A stretch of 64,000 nt of DNA from Gammaproteobacteria bacterium (GTDB lineage: Bacteria; Pseudomonadota; Gammaproteobacteria; Steroidobacterales; Rariloculaceae): positions 117,702-181,701 of the forward strand of contig DATCLY010000093.1 in the NCBI GenBank assembly GCA_036563665.1. The letters run 5' to 3'. The translations under genes were made by a program, and so were the position numbers. Of this stretch, positions 2,600-29,598 are shown one piece after another (the first letter of the stretch is position 1; each line of letters begins with the position of its first letter). Under the pieces are notes generated by a model, which made no database searches, was not told the DNA's origin, and was given only the letters and a program-made list of their open reading frames with translations.

Positions 2600-5505
2600 C
2601 AGTCGAGGCTCTCGCGGACCCAATACGTGCGTATCGGCCGGTTGCGATAGCCCGTCGGGAAGCAGGCCAGACCCACGCAGACGAGGGGCTCCGGAAGGCA
2701 CGCTTCCCCCGCGCAGCCGCCCGCCGCCGCCGTGCAGCCCGCCTCCGCGCACGGGGCCGGGGCGGGCGCGTCGGGCGGCGGGAACAGGAACCGCGGTGCG
2801 GCCGCGACCGGGGCGGCGAGCTCGATGAAGCCGGCCTCGTCGTTCGCGACGACGGGCGCAAGCGCCGGTGCGCCGTCGATCACGTCCAGCGCGTACAGGC
2901 GGCTCGTGCCGAGCGCGGGCACGCAAGGGTCGGCGTCGGACGGCGTGCCGGGCGTGTACGTGGTGAAGAACACCCGGCCGTCGAACGTGCGCGACTCGGC
3001 CAGCACCTTCTCCCCGGGCGAGCGCAGCGAGTGGCGCCAGCCGGGAGCCGTCGACGGAACGACTGCCGCGTGACGATCCGTCACGTCCACGAGGTCCTCG
3101 TCGGTGACGGGGACCGCGCGGTCGTACTCGTCCTGCGTGCGGCGCCGGAACGGGACGCGATCGCGAAGCGCGTAGAAGCGATCGTCGTTGCCGACCGCGT
3201 TCGGCCGGGCGCGGTGGCCCGACCCGAGGCCCACGTGGAGATACGCGCCGCCCGCGCTCTGCACGAGCGCGACGTCGGGCGCGTGATAGAACCGCCGCGT
3301 GTCGGCCCCGGTGGGCGCCGCCGCGGCGGCCGCGCCCAGCGAGGCGATCACGCCGCCGGTCGCGAGGCTCGCCGCGTCCCGCCCGTTCCACAGATCGAAG
3401 CGCCACACTTGTCCGCCCACGTCGGCCGCGTACAGCCGGTCGGCGAAGCCGTCGGTGTCGAGGTCGAGCACCTTGACGCCGCCGGGCAGCGAGTAGCGCA
3501 TGGCGCCGTTCGGGGCGGCGAAGCGTTGCGTCGCGTCCGCGACGCCCGCCCACCAGAGCAGCTCGCCGTTCACGGCGTCGACGATGTAGAGCGCGTTGCC
3601 CACGTCGTCGGTGCGCGGTTCGGGCGCGTCCTGACCCGGGTCGTAGCCGCCGGTCATCACGACCACGAGCCGCTCGGGATTGTCGGGCGCGTAGGGTGCG
3701 CCCGCGATGTCGATGCGCGCGGGCACCGGCGCGGCCCACGTCTGCCCGAGGCGCGGCAACGTCTCGTGGTCGTGACGCCAGAGGAGCACCGGCGCGTCGG
3801 GACGAGTGACGTCGAGCGCGTAGTACGCGCGCCCGCCGCGCCGCATGCCGAAGTAGAGATACACCCGCTCGCCGTCGTCGGGCTCGATCACGCCGTCGCC
3901 GTCGTGCACGGCATGCAGACGCAACGGGCCGTCGAGGCCGTAGGCCTTGGACGAAGGGCCGTCCGCGAGCCGCGCCGCCTGCCGGGGCAGGAGCCCCGGC
4001 GGCACGAACGCCCAACGCTCCGTGCCGCTCTCGCCGTCGATCGCGTGCAGATAACCGTCGTTCGTGGCGGCGTAGACCGTGACGTCGTCCGCGCCCGGCC
4101 CGTACGCCATCGCGACGGGCGCGGAGTGCAGCGAGTCGCCCAAGGCGCCGCGGCGGTCGGGCACGCCGTCGCCGTTGCGATCGAAAGCGTCGTTCATGAA
4201 GTCGATGACGTCCTCGCGCGCGGGTCTGCCTGCGTGCGCGCCGAGCAGCGGGCCGGTGAGGGCGTCGTTCGCGGCGTCCACGCGGTTGCCGGGAGCCATG
4301 AGGTCGCGATCGCCGAGCCCCGTGAGGACCGTGCGCGGCGCCGGGATGTGCTGCGCCGCGCCGCCCGCCTCGACGTCGTGCCCGTCGGGCTGCGCCGACC
4401 AGAGGCTGCGCGCGCCCGGCGCGAAGAAGCCCGTGGCGCGTTCCACGGCGGGCACCCCGTCCGCATCCACGATGCCGGCCGAGGCGAGCCGGTATTTCTT
4501 CACGTTGCCGGGCCAATGCGCCGTGGCGGACGGCCGAAACACGCTGACGTAGACATCGAGCCCATGCTGCGTGCGATTGAAGGCGTCCACGGGCACGGCC
4601 GGCGGCACGGCGCTCGACGGCGCGGCCAGGATCTCCGCGGCGACGGCGGACAGCGCCGTCGCGAGCCCGGCGGCATCGTCCGCCGTGCGGTGCTCGCCGC
4701 CCCCCCGCGCCGCCGTCCGCGCGAGCAGCGGCTCCAGTGCCGCGCTCACCACGTGCGTGATCACGTTCTGCCGCCCGGGCAGCGGCGAGAGGTCCGCACG
4801 GCGCAGGAACTCCGCGAGGTCGTCGAGACAGGCGCCGCCGCTGCGTGCCGGTTGCGCGTCGCACGCGCCCCCGTCCACGAGGCTCGCGAACGCCTCGCCG
4901 GTTGCGTCCGCGAGCGCCGCGATCTTGTCGTCCGCCTCGTCGCCGCCGCTCCCGCCGCCCATCAGCAGCACGACGTGGTTGCGTTGGCAGGCGAGCTCGA
5001 TCGGCGACGCGTAGCGAGCCGCATCGTCGGTGCGGCGCGCAGCCGCGTCTCCGCGCGTGCCGTAGTCCACCGGCGCGCCGAGCCAGTAGCGCGCCGCCTC
5101 GTACAACGCGGCGGCCGGCGTGTACGGCTGCTCGGGCACGAGGCCCGCGATGGCGGCGTGCAGCGCCGCGCGGCGCGCCTCGCCGTCGCCCATCGCAACG
5201 TCGACTGCGCCACCGCCGGCATCGAAGCTCATGAGGCCGACGTTCGCGTCTCCGAGCGCGTCGATCAGCGCGTGCGCCGCGTCCGCGAGCGCTCGCAGGC
5301 GCTCGGTCGCCGCCGCGTGCTCCTCGGCCGTGGCTCCGTCGCCCGGTCCCGAGTCGTCGATGAGCAGCAACACGTTGGGCCGCACGCTCGGGCTCGGGGT
5401 GCCGAGGAAGAGATCCGCATCGTCGGCTCGGGCGCACGCGCACGCCGCGAGCGCCCAAGCGCTGCCCGCGAGCGCCGAGAGCGAACGCCGCGCGCCGCGC
5501 GTCAT
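2599..5505 (-). CDS. pilY1: Type IV pilus tip adhesin / biogenesis factor PilY1
   Basis: A 968-aa protein with a signal peptide (SALAGSAWALAACACA) and a vWA-like N-terminal region (VLLLIDDSG). The C-terminal beta-propeller region carries the PilY1 Ca-binding motif DLDTDGFAD (nt 3439-3465) and a second DRNGDGVPD loop. It sits between the pilX-side genes and pilE. Confidence 0.9.
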   Translation of the reverse strand: MTRGARRSLSALAGSAWALAACACARADDADLFLGTPSPSVRPNVLLLIDDSGPGDGATAEEHAAATERLRALADAAHALIDALGDANVGLMSFDAGGGAVDVAMGDGEARRAALHAAIAGLVPEQPYTPAAALYEAARYWLGAPVDYGTRGDAAARRTDDAARYASPIELACQRNHVVLLMGGGSGGDEADDKIAALADATGEAFASLVDGGACDAQPARSGGACLDDLAEFLRRADLSPLPGRQNVITHVVSAALEPLLARTAARGGGEHRTADDAAGLATALSAVAAEILAAPSSAVPPAVPVDAFNRTQHGLDVYVSVFRPSATAHWPGNVKKYRLASAGIVDADGVPAVERATGFFAPGARSLWSAQPDGHDVEAGGAAQHIPAPRTVLTGLGDRDLMAPGNRVDAANDALTGPLLGAHAGRPAREDVIDFMNDAFDRNGDGVPDRRGALGDSLHSAPVAMAYGPGADDVTVYAATNDGYLHAIDGESGTERWAFVPPGLLPRQAARLADGPSSKAYGLDGPLRLHAVHDGDGVIEPDDGERVYLYFGMRRGGRAYYALDVTRPDAPVLLWRHDHETLPRLGQTWAAPVPARIDIAGAPYAPDNPERLVVVMTGGYDPGQDAPEPRTDDVGNALYIVDAVNGELLWWAGVADATQRFAAPNGAMRYSLPGGVKVLDLDTDGFADRLYAADVGGQVWRFDLWNGRDAASLATGGVIASLGAAAAAAPTGADTRRFYHAPDVALVQSAGGAYLHVGLGSGHRARPNAVGNDDRFYALRDRVPFRRRTQDEYDRAVPVTDEDLVDVTDRHAAVVPSTAPGWRHSLRSPGEKVLAESRTFDGRVFFTTYTPGTPSDADPCVPALGTSRLYALDVIDGAPALAPVVANDEAGFIELAAPVAAAPRFLFPPPDAPAPAPCAEAGCTAAAGGCAGEACLPEPLVCVGLACFPTGYRNRPIRTYWVRESLD

Positions 5506-5903
5506 CGCCGCACCTCGAAGGCGCCGTGGCCGCTCGCGAGCGCCGGGTGCGGCGCCGCGACGATCACGCGCGTGACGCGGCCGGTCGCGAGCTCGTAATA
5601 AATGAATGCGACGGCCTCGGGAGACGCGGCCCGCGCGGCTTCGGCCGCCGCCGGGAACGTCTCGGCGTCGACCGCGCGGCCGTGCACGAAGTAGCGGGTG
5701 GCGGGCGTGAGCGGCAGCGCAACGCTCGCACAGCGCGGGCTCGGCCGCACGGCGAGCGCGCTCGCGGGCGGCGCGGGCCACGCGAGATCCTCCAGCGCGA
5801 CGGCGTGGCGGCCCTCGACGGGCTCCTCCGGGCGGGGCGCCGCGGCGGCGCCGGCCGCGACCAACACCGGCCAGCCGAGTCGGACGAATCGGATCATGGA
5901 CAT
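5502..5903 (-). CDS. Hypothetical exported protein inside the minor-pilin operon (not a pilin)
   Basis: A 133-aa ORF with a hydrophobic N-terminus (MSMIRFVRLGWPVLVAAGAAAA) and high GC3. The stop overlaps the pilY1 start (ATGA), and it begins 16 nt after the pilX stop. It has no prepilin G|F/L-T-L-x-E motif. Confidence 0.55.
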   Translation of the reverse strand: MSMIRFVRLGWPVLVAAGAAAAPRPEEPVEGRHAVALEDLAWPAPPASALAVRPSPRCASVALPLTPATRYFVHGRAVDAETFPAAAEAARAASPEAVAFIYYELATGRVTRVIVAAPHPALASGHGAFEVRR

Positions 5904-27641: not shown

Positions 27642-27833
27642 TCAGCGCCGCTTGCGCCACAGGACGAACCACGCCAGCAAGTAGAACGCGCCGCCCGTCG
27701 TCACCCCGCTCAGCACCGCCAATATCACGGCTTCGAGGAGCGGCTCCGTGGAGGTCGCGACGAGACCGCTGACGATGCTGCAGAGCGTCAACGAGAGCCA
27801 CGTCAGGAAATCTTCGCGGTTCCACGGGCGCAT
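27642..27833 (-). CDS. Small two-TM membrane protein, candidate immunity protein for the adjacent peptide
   Basis: A 63-aa ORF with two hydrophobic helices (FLTWLSLTLCSIVSGLVATS and AVILAVLSGVTTGGAFYLLAWFVLW) and a basic C-terminus. It starts 68 nt downstream of the double-glycine peptide gene on the same strand, with GGAG 5 nt before the ATG. Confidence 0.5.
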   Translation of the reverse strand: MRPWNREDFLTWLSLTLCSIVSGLVATSTEPLLEAVILAVLSGVTTGGAFYLLAWFVLWRKRR

Positions 27834-27868
27834 CTCGGCTCCGGCTCACTCGTGTGGTCGGGAAAGAC

Positions 27869-27894
27869 GGGTGGCGGAGCGCGCGCCGCCACCC
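27869..27894 (-). terminator. GC-rich hairpin between peptide gene and immunity-like gene (attenuator/partial terminator candidate)
   Basis: A perfect 9-bp stem GGGTGGCGG/CCGCCACCC with an 8-nt loop. On the transcribed strand it is followed by GUCUUUCCC. Confidence 0.35.
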
Positions 27895-27901
27895 TTGGTT
27901 G

Positions 27902-28129
27902 TCAGAAGCAGTAGTTCCAAAGATCCAGGACGATGTAGCTCGCCCCCGCGGTGAGGGCGCCGGCCAACGCCCCCGTCGGCGCGCCGACGACCGTGAGGGA
28001 GCCCATCATGGCGCCCGCGACGGCGCCGCCGAGCATGTGACCGCCGAGCTCCGTCCACGTGAATCCCCCGGCGACCTGCGCGACTTCCTCCGCGCTGAGC
28101 TCCCTGATGCTGCTTGCTGCGCACTCCAT
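27902..28129 (-). CDS. Double-glycine-leader peptide (class II microcin/bacteriocin-like precursor)
   Basis: A 75-aa ORF with a strong SD (AAGGAGGAG) 6 nt before the ATG. The leader MECAASSIRELSAEEVAQVAGG fits the LSxxELxxIxGG consensus. The 53-aa core is Gly/Ala-rich with GxxxG-type spacing (FTWTELGGHMLGGAVAGAMMGSLTVVGAPTGALAGALTAGASYIVLDLWNYCF). Confidence 0.75.
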   Translation of the reverse strand: MECAASSIRELSAEEVAQVAGGFTWTELGGHMLGGAVAGAMMGSLTVVGAPTGALAGALTAGASYIVLDLWNYCF

Positions 28130-28188
28130 GCTGGCTCCTCCTTGCCCTGGTGAAACCTGCCCGTTCCTCCTGGAGCGGGTCCAACGGA

Positions 28189-29598
28189 TTACACGCGAAG
28201 GAGGGCGTGGACGCAGCCTGCGAAACTCGCGCTTTCGCGGTCATTCACGCGATCGCGCCCGGGGTCGGAGGAACGGACGCGCACGCGGCGGAACGCGCTC
28301 AGCCCGAGCATGAGCGCGGCCTCTCCGCCCGCGCGGAAGAACGCGAGCGAGAGCTGCGGCAGCGGCGAGCGCAGCACGAAGCCGCGGACGGCGTCGCGCT
28401 CGAGGTCGACGGCGAGCGTCGGTCCTCCCTGCTCGCGCCCGATCTCGCAGCGCAGCCCGGCGCCCACCGCGGACACGGCGACGACGCCGCGTCCGGGGCC
28501 GATGTAGACGCCGGTCCAGTCGCCGGGCTCGAAATCGAGCCGGGGCGCCGGGACCTCTGGCTCCGGGATGCGCAGCACGTCGCGATAGAGGGCTTCGAGC
28601 AGCCGGTCGCGCAGCGGCGGCGACACGGCGTTCATCCCCACCGCGGCCGCGATGCCGGTCGCGGGGTCGAAGCGCAGCGCGACGCACTGCCCGCGCGTGA
28701 GGCCGGTAGCGCCGTAGCGGCCGCCGCGCAGGTGGGCGGCGCCGAGCCCGAACGCGGTCGGCAGCAGCTCGCTCAGCGGACCGCCGAATGCCGGCGGCAG
28801 GCGGATGGCCTCGCGCACGAGGAGGCCGACGGAGGCACGCGACAGCCAGGCGCAGCGGCCGCGTCCCGCTTCGACTGCCGCGCGGGCGATCGCGGCGAGG
28901 TCGCGCGCCGACAACGTGAAGCTCGAGAATGCAGGCACCCAGAAGGGGCTCGGGGCCGCCACCGGCGCGAGCGGCGCGAGCCTGCCCAACGCCGCGTCGT
29001 ACTCGTGGTGCCCGGCGCTCGAGCCGTCGCCGAGCGATCCGGGCACGATCTCGAGCGGCTCGAGCACGCGGTCCCGCACGAGCGCGAGACAGGGCGTTCC
29101 CGTGACGCGCTCCAGCACCGCCCCGAGCAGCACTGCCTCGGTGTGCTCGTAGGAGAAGGCCGTGCCCGGCTCGAAGAGCTGCGGCGCGGCGCGCAGATAG
29201 GCGACGAACGACGGCCAATCGAGCGAGCGCGTCTGCGGGTCGAGGATGCTCGTGCCGCGATAGCCGCTCGTGTGCGACAGCAGGTGCTCGACGCGCACCT
29301 TCGCGCCGACCGTGCTCCCGCGCAGCTCCGGCAGGTAGTCGCGGAGCGGCGCGTCGAGCGTGAGCGCGCGCGTGTGATGGAGCTCGAGCGCCACGAGCGC
29401 GAGCAGCAGCTTGGTCACGCAGCCGGCGTGGAAGCGGTGGGCGGGCCCGAGCGGCGCATCGGCGCCGAGCGCGCGCACGCCCGCGCAAGCCTCCGCCGCT
29501 CCGCGGTCGGTGGACAGCGCGACGGCGATGCCCGGGACGCCGCTCTGGCGTTGCACCGCCGCGGTGAACGCGCGGAGCTCCTGTCGTATCGCCTCCAT
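28189..29598 (-). CDS. Beta-lactamase-fold (PF00144-type serine hydrolase family) protein with Cys in the SxxK position, no signal peptide
   Basis: A 469-aa protein with the family patterns FHAG-C-VTK-LLLA (codon TGC at 29419-29421), LLSHTSGY and PGTAFSYEHTEAVLLGAVLERVTG. Confidence 0.75.
   Translation of the reverse strand: MEAIRQELRAFTAAVQRQSGVPGIAVALSTDRGAAEACAGVRALGADAPLGPAHRFHAGCVTKLLLALVALELHHTRALTLDAPLRDYLPELRGSTVGAKVRVEHLLSHTSGYRGTSILDPQTRSLDWPSFVAYLRAAPQLFEPGTAFSYEHTEAVLLGAVLERVTGTPCLALVRDRVLEPLEIVPGSLGDGSSAGHHEYDAALGRLAPLAPVAAPSPFWVPAFSSFTLSARDLAAIARAAVEAGRGRCAWLSRASVGLLVREAIRLPPAFGGPLSELLPTAFGLGAAHLRGGRYGATGLTRGQCVALRFDPATGIAAAVGMNAVSPPLRDRLLEALYRDVLRIPEPEVPAPRLDFEPGDWTGVYIGPGRGVVAVSAVGAGLRCEIGREQGGPTLAVDLERDAVRGFVLRSPLPQLSLAFFRAGGEAALMLGLSAFRRVRVRSSDPGRDRVNDRESASFAGCVHALLRV

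Follow-up and report, generated by a model that had tools for sequence, protein, structure and literature searches.

A double-glycine-leader peptide gene with a two-helix partner and an upstream Cys-x-x-Lys enzyme: a candidate reduced bacteriocin module in a gammaproteobacterial genome

How might a small, leader-bearing peptide of the bacteriocin type be matured and exported when no exporter is encoded near its gene? The question is raised by a locus on the minus strand of contig DATCLY010000093.1 (assembly GCA_036563665.1, a gammaproteobacterium), within a stretch of 64,000 nucleotides that was analysed as a whole and is referred to here as the window (positions 117,702 to 181,701 of the contig; coordinates below are those of the window). 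A preliminary description of this DNA had pointed to a 75-aa precursor with a double-glycine (GG) leader and a 63-aa membrane protein encoded 3' of it, and had placed them as an undescribed toxin/immunity pair between nadC and a cyclic di-GMP gene. The cyclic di-GMP gene does lie on the one side; on the other, directly upstream of the peptide, a 469-aa gene matching PF00144 had been overlooked. The reading favoured here, to which a probability of roughly 0.55 is assigned, is that the enzyme, precursor and partner genes on the minus strand make up a reduced module of a larger cluster type dependent upon a peptidase-containing ATP-binding cassette transporter (PCAT), in which the enzyme would tailor the precursor and export would be supplied in trans.

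The precursor, the enzyme and the partner

The precursor is encoded by an open reading frame (ORF) of 75 codons at 27902-28129 (minus strand), the ATG of which is the first start codon past the preceding stop. Its leader, MECAASSIRELSAEEVAQVAGG, read directly, contains L-12, S-11, E-8, V-7, V-4, G-2 and G-1, the full double-glycine consensus, and thus agrees at every conserved position with what had been reported. The core that would be released has an average mass of 5292 Da, an isoelectric point of 4.35 (anionic), 36% Gly plus Ala and GxxxG-type spacing; the precursor (7.48 kDa) and the core (5.29 kDa) both fall below 10 kDa, with monoisotopic masses of 7477.6 and 5288.6 Da for the unmodified forms. 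The proportion of G+C at third codon positions is 0.89 in the peptide ORF and 0.91 in the 63-aa ORF, compared with 0.92-0.96 in neighbouring genes and 0.60-0.70 in overlapping alternative frames, and codon usage of both small ORFs is host-like. Judged by these coding signatures, both small genes are real. A degenerate DNA pattern for the leader was matched once in the window and not at all in 100 shuffles; the ORF is the single GG-leader ORF of the window, and no second, complementary GG peptide gene is present there.

Membership of the peptide in a known class was assessed with profile searches. Pfam model PF10439 (Bacteriocin_IIc), the hidden Markov model (HMM) that had been proposed as a check, matches residues 7-58 with 37.5 bits (E 2.4e-9), above its gathering threshold of 27.1 bits, and also matches 17 of 26 family members. 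An identical protein is held at NCBI as 'MAG TPA: Blp family class II bacteriocin [Gammaproteobacteria bacterium]', so that the gene cannot be called unrecognised. The model of two-peptide class IIb bacteriocins, TIGR03949 (lactobin A/cerein 7B), reaches 11.8 bits, below its cut-off of 21.5; PF17508 (MccV) gives no match to the peptide, which has no sequence similarity to MccV. Features of class IIb siderophore microcins are likewise absent, in that the C-terminus, DLWNYCF, is not Ser-rich and no MceC/D/I/J-type genes lie nearby. An exhaustive HMMER search (E <1e-3) recovered about 57 cluster representatives, which form a proteobacterial subfamily whose real homologues are all 63-128 aa in length; a 2533-aa repeat protein (P0005) was discarded as a spurious match to 'FTWTNLG'. 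The subfamily shares a leader of the form (I/M)RELSxEExxxVxG(G/A/S), the residues F/W-S/T-W, a Gly/Ala-rich core and an invariant Tyr, and in many members the C-terminus is aromatic-Cys-Xaa. Across 26-32 homologues the boundary between leader and core is conserved as G-G/A/S followed by an aromatic residue. The assignment to a GG precursor of the class II bacteriocin/microcin type is borne out by this boundary together with the PF10439 match, and the homologues' lengths show that the ORF is no N-terminal piece of something longer. String searches of the literature for the family motifs returned no relevant paper.

Sub-threshold matches of the peptide to the glycine-zipper families PF13441, PF05433 and PF13488 are of the kind expected if the two small genes encoded a non-secreted pair of glycine-zipper inner-membrane proteins whose leader-like N-terminus was coincidental. 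Those matches lie far under their cut-offs, however, no part of the peptide is more conserved than the leader, and homologues of the peptide are encoded beside PCATs; such an explanation is highly improbable.

Structure prediction for the peptide with AlphaFold2 (32 sequences) gave one helix in the leader (residues 13-20) and, in the core, a helical hairpin composed of residues 25-43 and 50-74, with a predicted local distance difference test (pLDDT) score of about 90 for the core. A Foldseek search of the PDB with this model returned no significant match, membrane helical hairpins dominating the list; a weak, non-significant match to the microcin MccE492 bound to ManYZ (7dyr_A, E 2.8) is a lead only. 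A PDB sequence search with the peptide profile returned only low-complexity matches (prion protein, citrate synthase).

The overlooked gene, which stops 59 nt before the peptide gene, encodes an enzyme of the penicillin-binding-protein (PBP)/beta-lactamase fold. PF00144 matches its residues 12-339 with 146 bits, and a signal peptide is absent. In place of Ser-x-x-Lys it carries the motif G-C60-V-T-K63, with the Cys codon at 29419-29421 and the Cys conserved in the orthologous locus of a second genome (L001). The closest solved relative is SurE (6KSU; E 7e-23, residues 10-328), a PBP-type thioesterase that cyclises non-ribosomal peptides, and C60 aligns with the catalytic Ser of SurE (GSVTK). 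Cys-x-x-Lys is also found in two enzymes of locus L142, bla1 (GCVTK) and bla2 (GCIAK), and in bla1 of loci L148 and L164 (GCASK), the last two being paralogues recovered by homology and not by a Cys-requiring pattern. The enzyme therefore lacks the catalytic Ser in Ser-x-x-Lys by which a PBP-type thioesterase is recognised, and no carrier protein, adenylating enzyme or non-ribosomal peptide synthetase (NRPS) that might serve it is encoded in the window. PBP-type thioesterases bear a lipocalin-like substrate-binding domain at the C-terminus; the window enzyme has a C-terminal extension, roughly 130 aa long and conserved to residue 439, and a single-sequence AlphaFold2 model of the enzyme was unusable (pLDDT 35). 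The last 28 or so codons are non-conserved and run into the conserved 5' region of the peptide gene, and the real C-terminus probably lies near ...GLSAFRRV. An 85-nt indel (window 28189-28275, minus strand, vs L001:9790-9880) alters the 3' end of the enzyme ORF.

The two-helix partner is preceded by a ribosome-binding site, GGAG, at 27839-27842, and consists of two hydrophobic segments parted by TSTEP, with basic termini. The presence of such an ORF downstream, as earlier reported, holds, and equivalents of 62-69 aa lie 3' of homologous peptides in at least seven locus groups (L010, L017, L012, L021, L043, L096, L142, L148 and the P0061 locus). An invariant Pro-Leu opens helix 2 of these partners and their size and topology are common to them; sequence homology among them is weak, with an hhalign probability of 69% in profile comparison. 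Curated families gave no match to the partner, BlpZ (NF042932) reaching 15 bits (E 0.023) where the cut-off is 50. Microcin immunity proteins are small membrane proteins encoded beside the microcin (PMC12219008). Homology and context thus support the reading of the pair as bacteriocin and putative immunity protein well. In Nitrobacter (L029:1827-2327 and L129) the peptide is followed by an unrelated 53-aa GG-leader ORF (MQEPQELTDNELDSVSGG...) and not by a two-helix partner.

Co-occurrence of the enzyme with the peptide type

Does the enzyme belong with the peptide, or does it only stand next to it? An answer is suggested by locus L142, which holds, in this order, genes for a membrane fusion protein (MFP), two PF00144 proteins (447 and 405 aa), an AMP-binding enzyme, a PCAT, a carrier protein, a peptide and a 66-aa partner. 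The L142 peptide, P0063, is 46% identical to that of the window, and the first of the two PF00144 enzymes shows 47% identity with that of the window across 445 residues (E 5e-110), with the same GCVTK. Because this cluster holds homologues of both enzyme and peptide, the enzyme can be tied to the peptide type.

An earlier metagenome scan with an enzyme alignment had confirmed no locus. A scan from the enzyme side, carried out on JGI metagenomes with a hand-made DNA pattern (G-C-(V/I)-(T/A)-K-L-L ... L-L-x-H-T-x-G), yielded 25 loci. A FadD-like AMP-binding ligase adjoins the enzyme in about 18 of these. Seven of the 25 encode a PCAT, six an MFP and six a carrier protein, and a family peptide is encoded in four (L148, L149, L162 and L166).

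Further genes were seen in these clusters. In L166 (4356-5708) a major facilitator superfamily (MFS) transporter of 450 aa separates the FadD-like ligase from the PCAT, and a gap matching the size of such a transporter occurs at the same place in L148 (about 4457-5791). The full cluster is flanked by a thioredoxin-tetratricopeptide repeat gene and a 66-aa membrane ORF, the latter being found also in L043. Locus L167 (106-10595) encodes a PCAT, a Cys-x-x-Lys enzyme, a protein with PP-binding and Condensation domains (PCP-C), a LanB-type dehydratase of 1092 aa and an MFP, the enzyme standing between the PCAT and the dehydratase plus PCP-C protein.

A second line of evidence comes from the C-termini of the peptides. 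The P0061 locus comprises a carrier protein, a peptide ending in SYCF, a 64-aa ORF and, 3.3 kb off, a PF00144 gene; the occurrence of such a gene beside this penultimate-Cys peptide had been predicted beforehand. When the locus groups with sufficient context are divided by the presence of a penultimate Cys, the PF00144 enzyme is found in five of five groups that have it, namely NYCF (window and L001), NFCY (L142), TTCF (L148), NQCV (L166) and SYCF (P0061), and in none of the nine that do not (L010, L017, L096, L012, L013, L015, L021, L029 and L144). The Fisher exact test gives p of about 5e-4 for this association, the locus groups not being phylogenetically independent. From this co-occurrence we hypothesise that tailoring takes place at the C-terminal Cys-Xaa.

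The alternative to be weighed at this point is that the peptide is an ordinary, unmodified one of the class IIa microcin kind with its immunity protein, and that the upstream PBP-fold gene is an unrelated neighbour. The nine groups from which the enzyme is missing would be in keeping with this, as would the peptide gene's own strong ribosome-binding site and conserved 5' region and the labels given by Pfam and NCBI, which are those of a plain class II bacteriocin. On the other hand, the same enzyme subfamily, with its rare Cys-x-x-Lys, recurs with homologous peptides in other lineages, its presence tracks the penultimate Cys, and the enzyme family occurs elsewhere in clusters of the PCAT/RiPP type (ribosomally synthesised and post-translationally modified peptides). 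An unrelated neighbour is accordingly thought unlikely, although it is the strongest of the alternatives.

Drawing on gene structures, family membership, conservation and co-occurrence, the reduced-module reading can be spelled out as a model of modification, export, toxicity and immunity. The first gene would encode a cytoplasmic, SurE-like PBP-fold enzyme with a Cys instead of a Ser as nucleophile; the second, the 75-aa GG-leader precursor with a Gly/Ala-rich core predicted to form a helical hairpin ending in Cys-Phe; and the third, the 63-aa two-helix membrane protein. The enzyme would tailor or process the precursor in the cytoplasm, at or near the C-terminal Cys-Xaa. A PCAT encoded elsewhere, with an MFP and TolC, would then cut after Gly21-Gly22 and export the peptide, and the mature, hydrophobic and anionic hairpin of about 5.3 kDa would insert into the inner membrane of competing relatives, while the producer would be protected by the 63-aa protein. 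The larger cluster, as seen elsewhere, has the order MFP, two Cys-x-x-Lys enzymes, FadD-like ligase, MFS transporter, PCAT, carrier protein, precursor and partner. A more specific proposal takes the window module as the smallest version of a class of bacteriocins, so far undescribed, that are tailored and then exported by PCATs in environmental Proteobacteria. In this class the SurE-like enzyme would use its Cys nucleophile on the conserved C-terminal Cys-Xaa of a glycine-zipper GG-leader precursor, perhaps by acyl transfer, exchange of the C-terminal residue or cyclisation, and in full clusters the ligase and the stand-alone carrier protein would feed it. This proposal is offered tentatively, the odds being slightly against it.

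Export, selection and expression signals

The features of the locus are collected in Table 1.

Table 1. Features of the locus, in window coordinates
Feature	Position	Strand	Description
Double-glycine leader	28064..28129	-	MECAASSIRELSAEEVAQVAGG; 22 codons, predicted cleavage after G22; included in the PF10439 match
Core and stop codon	27902..28063	-	53-codon core; predicted mature peptide FTWTELGG...DLWNYCF, ending Cys74-Phe75
PBP/beta-lactamase-fold enzyme	28189..29598	-	469 aa, cytoplasmic; PF00144; proposed tailoring/processing enzyme
Conserved 5' region of the peptide gene	28130..28250	-	promoter and/or 5' untranslated region; holds AAGGAGGAG and CCCUCCUU
GC-rich stem-loop between peptide and partner genes	27869..27894	-	9-bp stem, -21.9 kcal/mol
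Two-helix inner-membrane protein	27642..27833	-	63 aa; ATG start, first after the preceding stop; candidate immunity protein

If the module depends upon a PCAT, where is it encoded? Neither an LSGGQ signature nor a C39 motif is present in the window, and phmmer searches of its six-frame translation with the family's own PCATs and MFPs returned nothing apart from a lipoyl-domain cross-hit to the E2 component of pyruvate dehydrogenase. The preliminary description was therefore right that the 64 kb encode no C39 exporter or membrane fusion protein; at L001, neither a PCAT nor an MFP was found within +/-10 kb. Among the homologues, peptides are encoded beside mutually related PCATs (L010/L011, L017-L020, L096, L043, L142, L148, L149/L162/L166 and L144), and an MFP is also present near the family peptide in L010, L017, L096, L142, L148, L166 and L144. 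In L010/L011 and L017-L020 the peptide gene directly follows the PCAT and precedes a 62-64-aa ORF, the MFP being divergently transcribed; the L010 PCAT is of the active type, its C39 domain scoring 118 bits with Cys25, His98 and Asp114 present. The arrangement in L096 is peptide, two two-helix ORFs and PCAT, that in L043 the 3' end of a PCAT, carrier protein, peptide and 67-aa ORF, and in L144 an MFP and a PCAT lie 5 kb from the peptide. The PCATs of this set are close to one another, with 329-1080 bits to the PCAT of L010.

Orphan copies like that of the window occur in L012, L013 (Bradyrhizobium), L015, L021 and L029 (Nitrobacter), and in E. coli 18% of microcin hits have no PCAT in their assembly (PMC9746304). 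Since orphan copies are common, the unconventional mode of export that had been considered is not called for, and the peptide is most simply taken to be exported by a PCAT encoded elsewhere in the genome.

Evidence bearing on selection comes from the second metagenome-assembled genome, GCA_036381915.1 (L001), the locus of which is fully syntenic, with the order nadC, PF00144 gene, 75-aa ORF, 63-aa ORF and convergent GGDEF/EAL gene. DNA identity in the flanks is 90-92%. Despite a DNA divergence of about 10%, none of the three ORFs is broken in either species, and both small ORFs are equal in length. At the protein level the peptide is 76% and the partner 73% identical, with 91% amino acid identity in the leader vs 70% in the core; the cleavage site is GG in the window and GA in L001. 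The ratio of non-synonymous to synonymous substitution rates (dN/dS; Nei-Gojobori, window vs L001) stands at 0.58 in the peptide and at 0.27 in the partner, and dN of the two is 0.16-0.17 vs 0.01-0.06 in housekeeping neighbours. Core and partner are thus a fast-evolving pair. Fast evolution is common in toxin/immunity pairs. The comparison suggests that both ORFs are maintained by selection, which is counted here in support of the reduced-module reading.

The 5' region of the peptide gene is among its best-conserved parts. The Shine-Dalgarno sequence, AAGGAGGAG at 28135-28143, contains one of eight perfect AAGGAGG in the window; the claim of a strong ribosome-binding site therefore stands, with the correction that it lies 5 nt and not 6 nt before the ATG. 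Over some 120 nt before the ATG the window and L001 hardly differ, although the stretch is non-coding in L001. An anti-Shine-Dalgarno sequence, CCCUCCUU at 28198-28205, is complementary to 28135-28143, and minimum free energy folds of both orthologues pair the two, with weak z-scores of -0.55 and -2.41. The predicted folds suggest that the 5' region may exert translational control. A GCUGCG of the same region is predicted to pair with codons 3-5 of the peptide gene. Scans of the locus detected no sigma-70 consensus and no Rfam match. The 9-bp GC hairpin reported to follow the peptide gene was found again; its stem is conserved in L001, its loop is different and a proper U tract is absent. It is likely a partial terminator or an mRNA stabiliser.

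Could the locus instead be a decaying or parasitic fragment of a cluster, lodged between nadC and the GGDEF/EAL gene, that has lost its exporter and is functionless or kept for immunity against the peptide of relatives? The exporter, ligase and carrier protein are absent from the 64 kb, the dN/dS of the peptide exceeds that of the partner, the enzyme ORF has its 3' end altered by the 85-nt indel, and 18% of E. coli microcin hits are without a PCAT in their assembly (PMC9746304). Decay is harder to reconcile with three intact ORFs whose lengths are conserved in two species about 10% diverged in DNA, with a leader and 5' region that are the best-conserved parts, and with a perfect Shine-Dalgarno sequence and host-like codon usage. 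It is regarded as rather improbable.

Several observations weigh against the reduced-module reading itself. Firstly, PCAT, MFP, ligase and carrier protein are absent from the window, to which that search extends, and the peptide's dN/dS also fits relaxed constraint. Secondly, regular-expression and HMM searches detected no GG-leader ORF in four Cys-x-x-Lys loci (L153, L154, L167 and L168), and in the P0061 locus the PF00144 gene, besides its distance of 3.3 kb, lies on the other strand and its motif is not readable. Thirdly, the full clusters that bear a peptide are mostly from one clade with an orthologous locus, and the adjacency of enzyme and peptide in the lineage of the window comes from two closely related genomes. 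Additionally, we know of no chemistry for any Cys-x-x-Lys enzyme of the PBP fold.

Other carriers of the leader and comparison with known systems

When GTDB genomes were scanned for the DNA pattern of the leader, mostly other GG-leader peptides were recovered, with four true family members among the matches listed; among these matches the same leader type precedes very diverse cores in Alpha-, Beta- and Gammaproteobacteria. In at least 16 species of the Caulobacterales/Hyphomonadaceae type, an ORF of 21-24 aa lies about 130-340 nt 3' of a full-length C39 PCAT (L026, L034, L050, L057, L060, L070, L090, L091, L093, L105, L112, L116, L122, L125 and L128). Hosts include Litorimonas cladophorae, Algimonas and Hellea; the PCATs of this whole set score 514-546 bits to that of L010. 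The ORF reads MRELT(L/V)EE(I/L)(E/D)VVxGG followed by a core of 6-8 residues resembling x-P-(I/V)-I-(I/V)-D-(F/W/Y). Its predicted product is a secreted peptide some 7 residues long, a candidate signal in Gram-negative Alphaproteobacteria; a string search of the literature for this peptide returned nothing relevant. In L054, L078, L106 and L113 (Xanthomonas campestris, X. vasicola and others), the same GG-type leader precedes AAAAADVDPSEPPTE and a Pro-rich linker in proteins of 240-307 aa, often in tandem, and L065 holds an ORF with the same leader and linker of only 65 aa. By their predicted lengths, the proteins of the L054 group are large GG-leader substrates and not small peptides.

This diversity of cores, the signal-like 7-residue ones included, leads to the idea that the window peptide too is secreted for a non-antibiotic purpose, as a signal or as a biofilm or matrix factor similar to the cyanobacterial EbfG proteins; small GG-motif proteins acting in biofilm do exist (PMC4997328). 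Such a role would sit poorly with the conserved adjoining two-helix partner, typical of toxin/immunity pairs, with a 53-aa hydrophobic glycine-zipper hairpin that matches Bacteriocin_IIc, and with the fast evolution of core and partner, and is considered very improbable.

What would the module mean? The peptide and its partner alone are one more subfamily of a widespread class and matter little by themselves. If the enzyme does act as proposed, a Cys-nucleophile branch working on ribosomal, leader-bearing and PCAT-exported peptides would bring a new chemistry to the tailoring of microcin-like toxins, would be the counterpart among ribosomal peptides of what PBP-type thioesterases do in non-ribosomal pathways, and might serve as a biocatalyst. 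The link to the enzyme predicts a modification at the penultimate Cys. More generally, bacteriocin genes that look like 'orphans' may be pieces of larger clusters, the other parts of which lie elsewhere in the genome.

Among known systems, the class II microcins (IIa: MccV, MccL, MccN; IIb: MccE492, H47, M) resemble the window peptide in a size below 10 kDa, a GG leader, a Gram-negative host, a PCAT and MFP near the homologues and a small adjoining membrane protein that is a candidate for immunity; with class IIb, the C-terminus as a possible site of post-translational modification is shared as well. The window differs in having no exporter within 64 kb and a candidate tailoring enzyme of a type not known for microcins, and the lack of a Ser-rich C-terminus and of siderophore-transfer genes sets the peptide outside class IIb. 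The preliminary description had held class II microcins to be characterised mainly in Enterobacteriaceae; they are now reported widely beyond this family (PMC12219008), and candidates from GC-rich Xanthomonas have been cloned (PMC13174018). This kind of gene is already known outside enteric bacteria, and peptide and partner are no new kind. Similarly, a precedent from non-enteric Gram-negative species for a GG-leader bacteriocin that has its own immunity factor is offered by McbC and McbI of Moraxella catarrhalis, characterised in 2009 together with a dedicated ABC exporter (PMC2761928), and by the peptides with GG leaders that Dirix et al. 2004 predicted in Gram-negative bacteria (as cited in PMC9746304); in these systems the cores are unrelated to that of the window, the exporter lies beside the peptide and there is no tailoring enzyme.

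The window enzyme is comparable to the PBP-type thioesterases SurE and PenA in its length (about 450-470 aa), its extra C-terminal domain and its cytoplasmic location, and its relatives adjoin carrier proteins and adenylating enzymes. It is set apart by the replacement of the nucleophilic Ser by Cys throughout the subfamily and by its context, that of a ribosomal GG-leader peptide and PCATs in place of an NRPS line, with no carrier protein in the window. PBP-type thioesterases are valued as peptide cyclases, and to our knowledge they have so far been found only with a Ser nucleophile and only in non-ribosomal pathways.

Gly-rich GG-leader peptides of the PF10439/Blp family have been characterised mainly in Gram-positive bacteria. 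They share with the window peptide the GG leader, a small, Gly/Ala-rich and hydrophobic core, GxxxG-type spacing and an adjoining small membrane protein. The window peptide, in contrast, belongs to a proteobacterial host, is anionic and single, bears a distinct subfamily signature (F/W-S/T-W after the cleavage site, aromatic-Cys-Xaa at the C-terminus) and is associated with an enzyme of the PBP fold.

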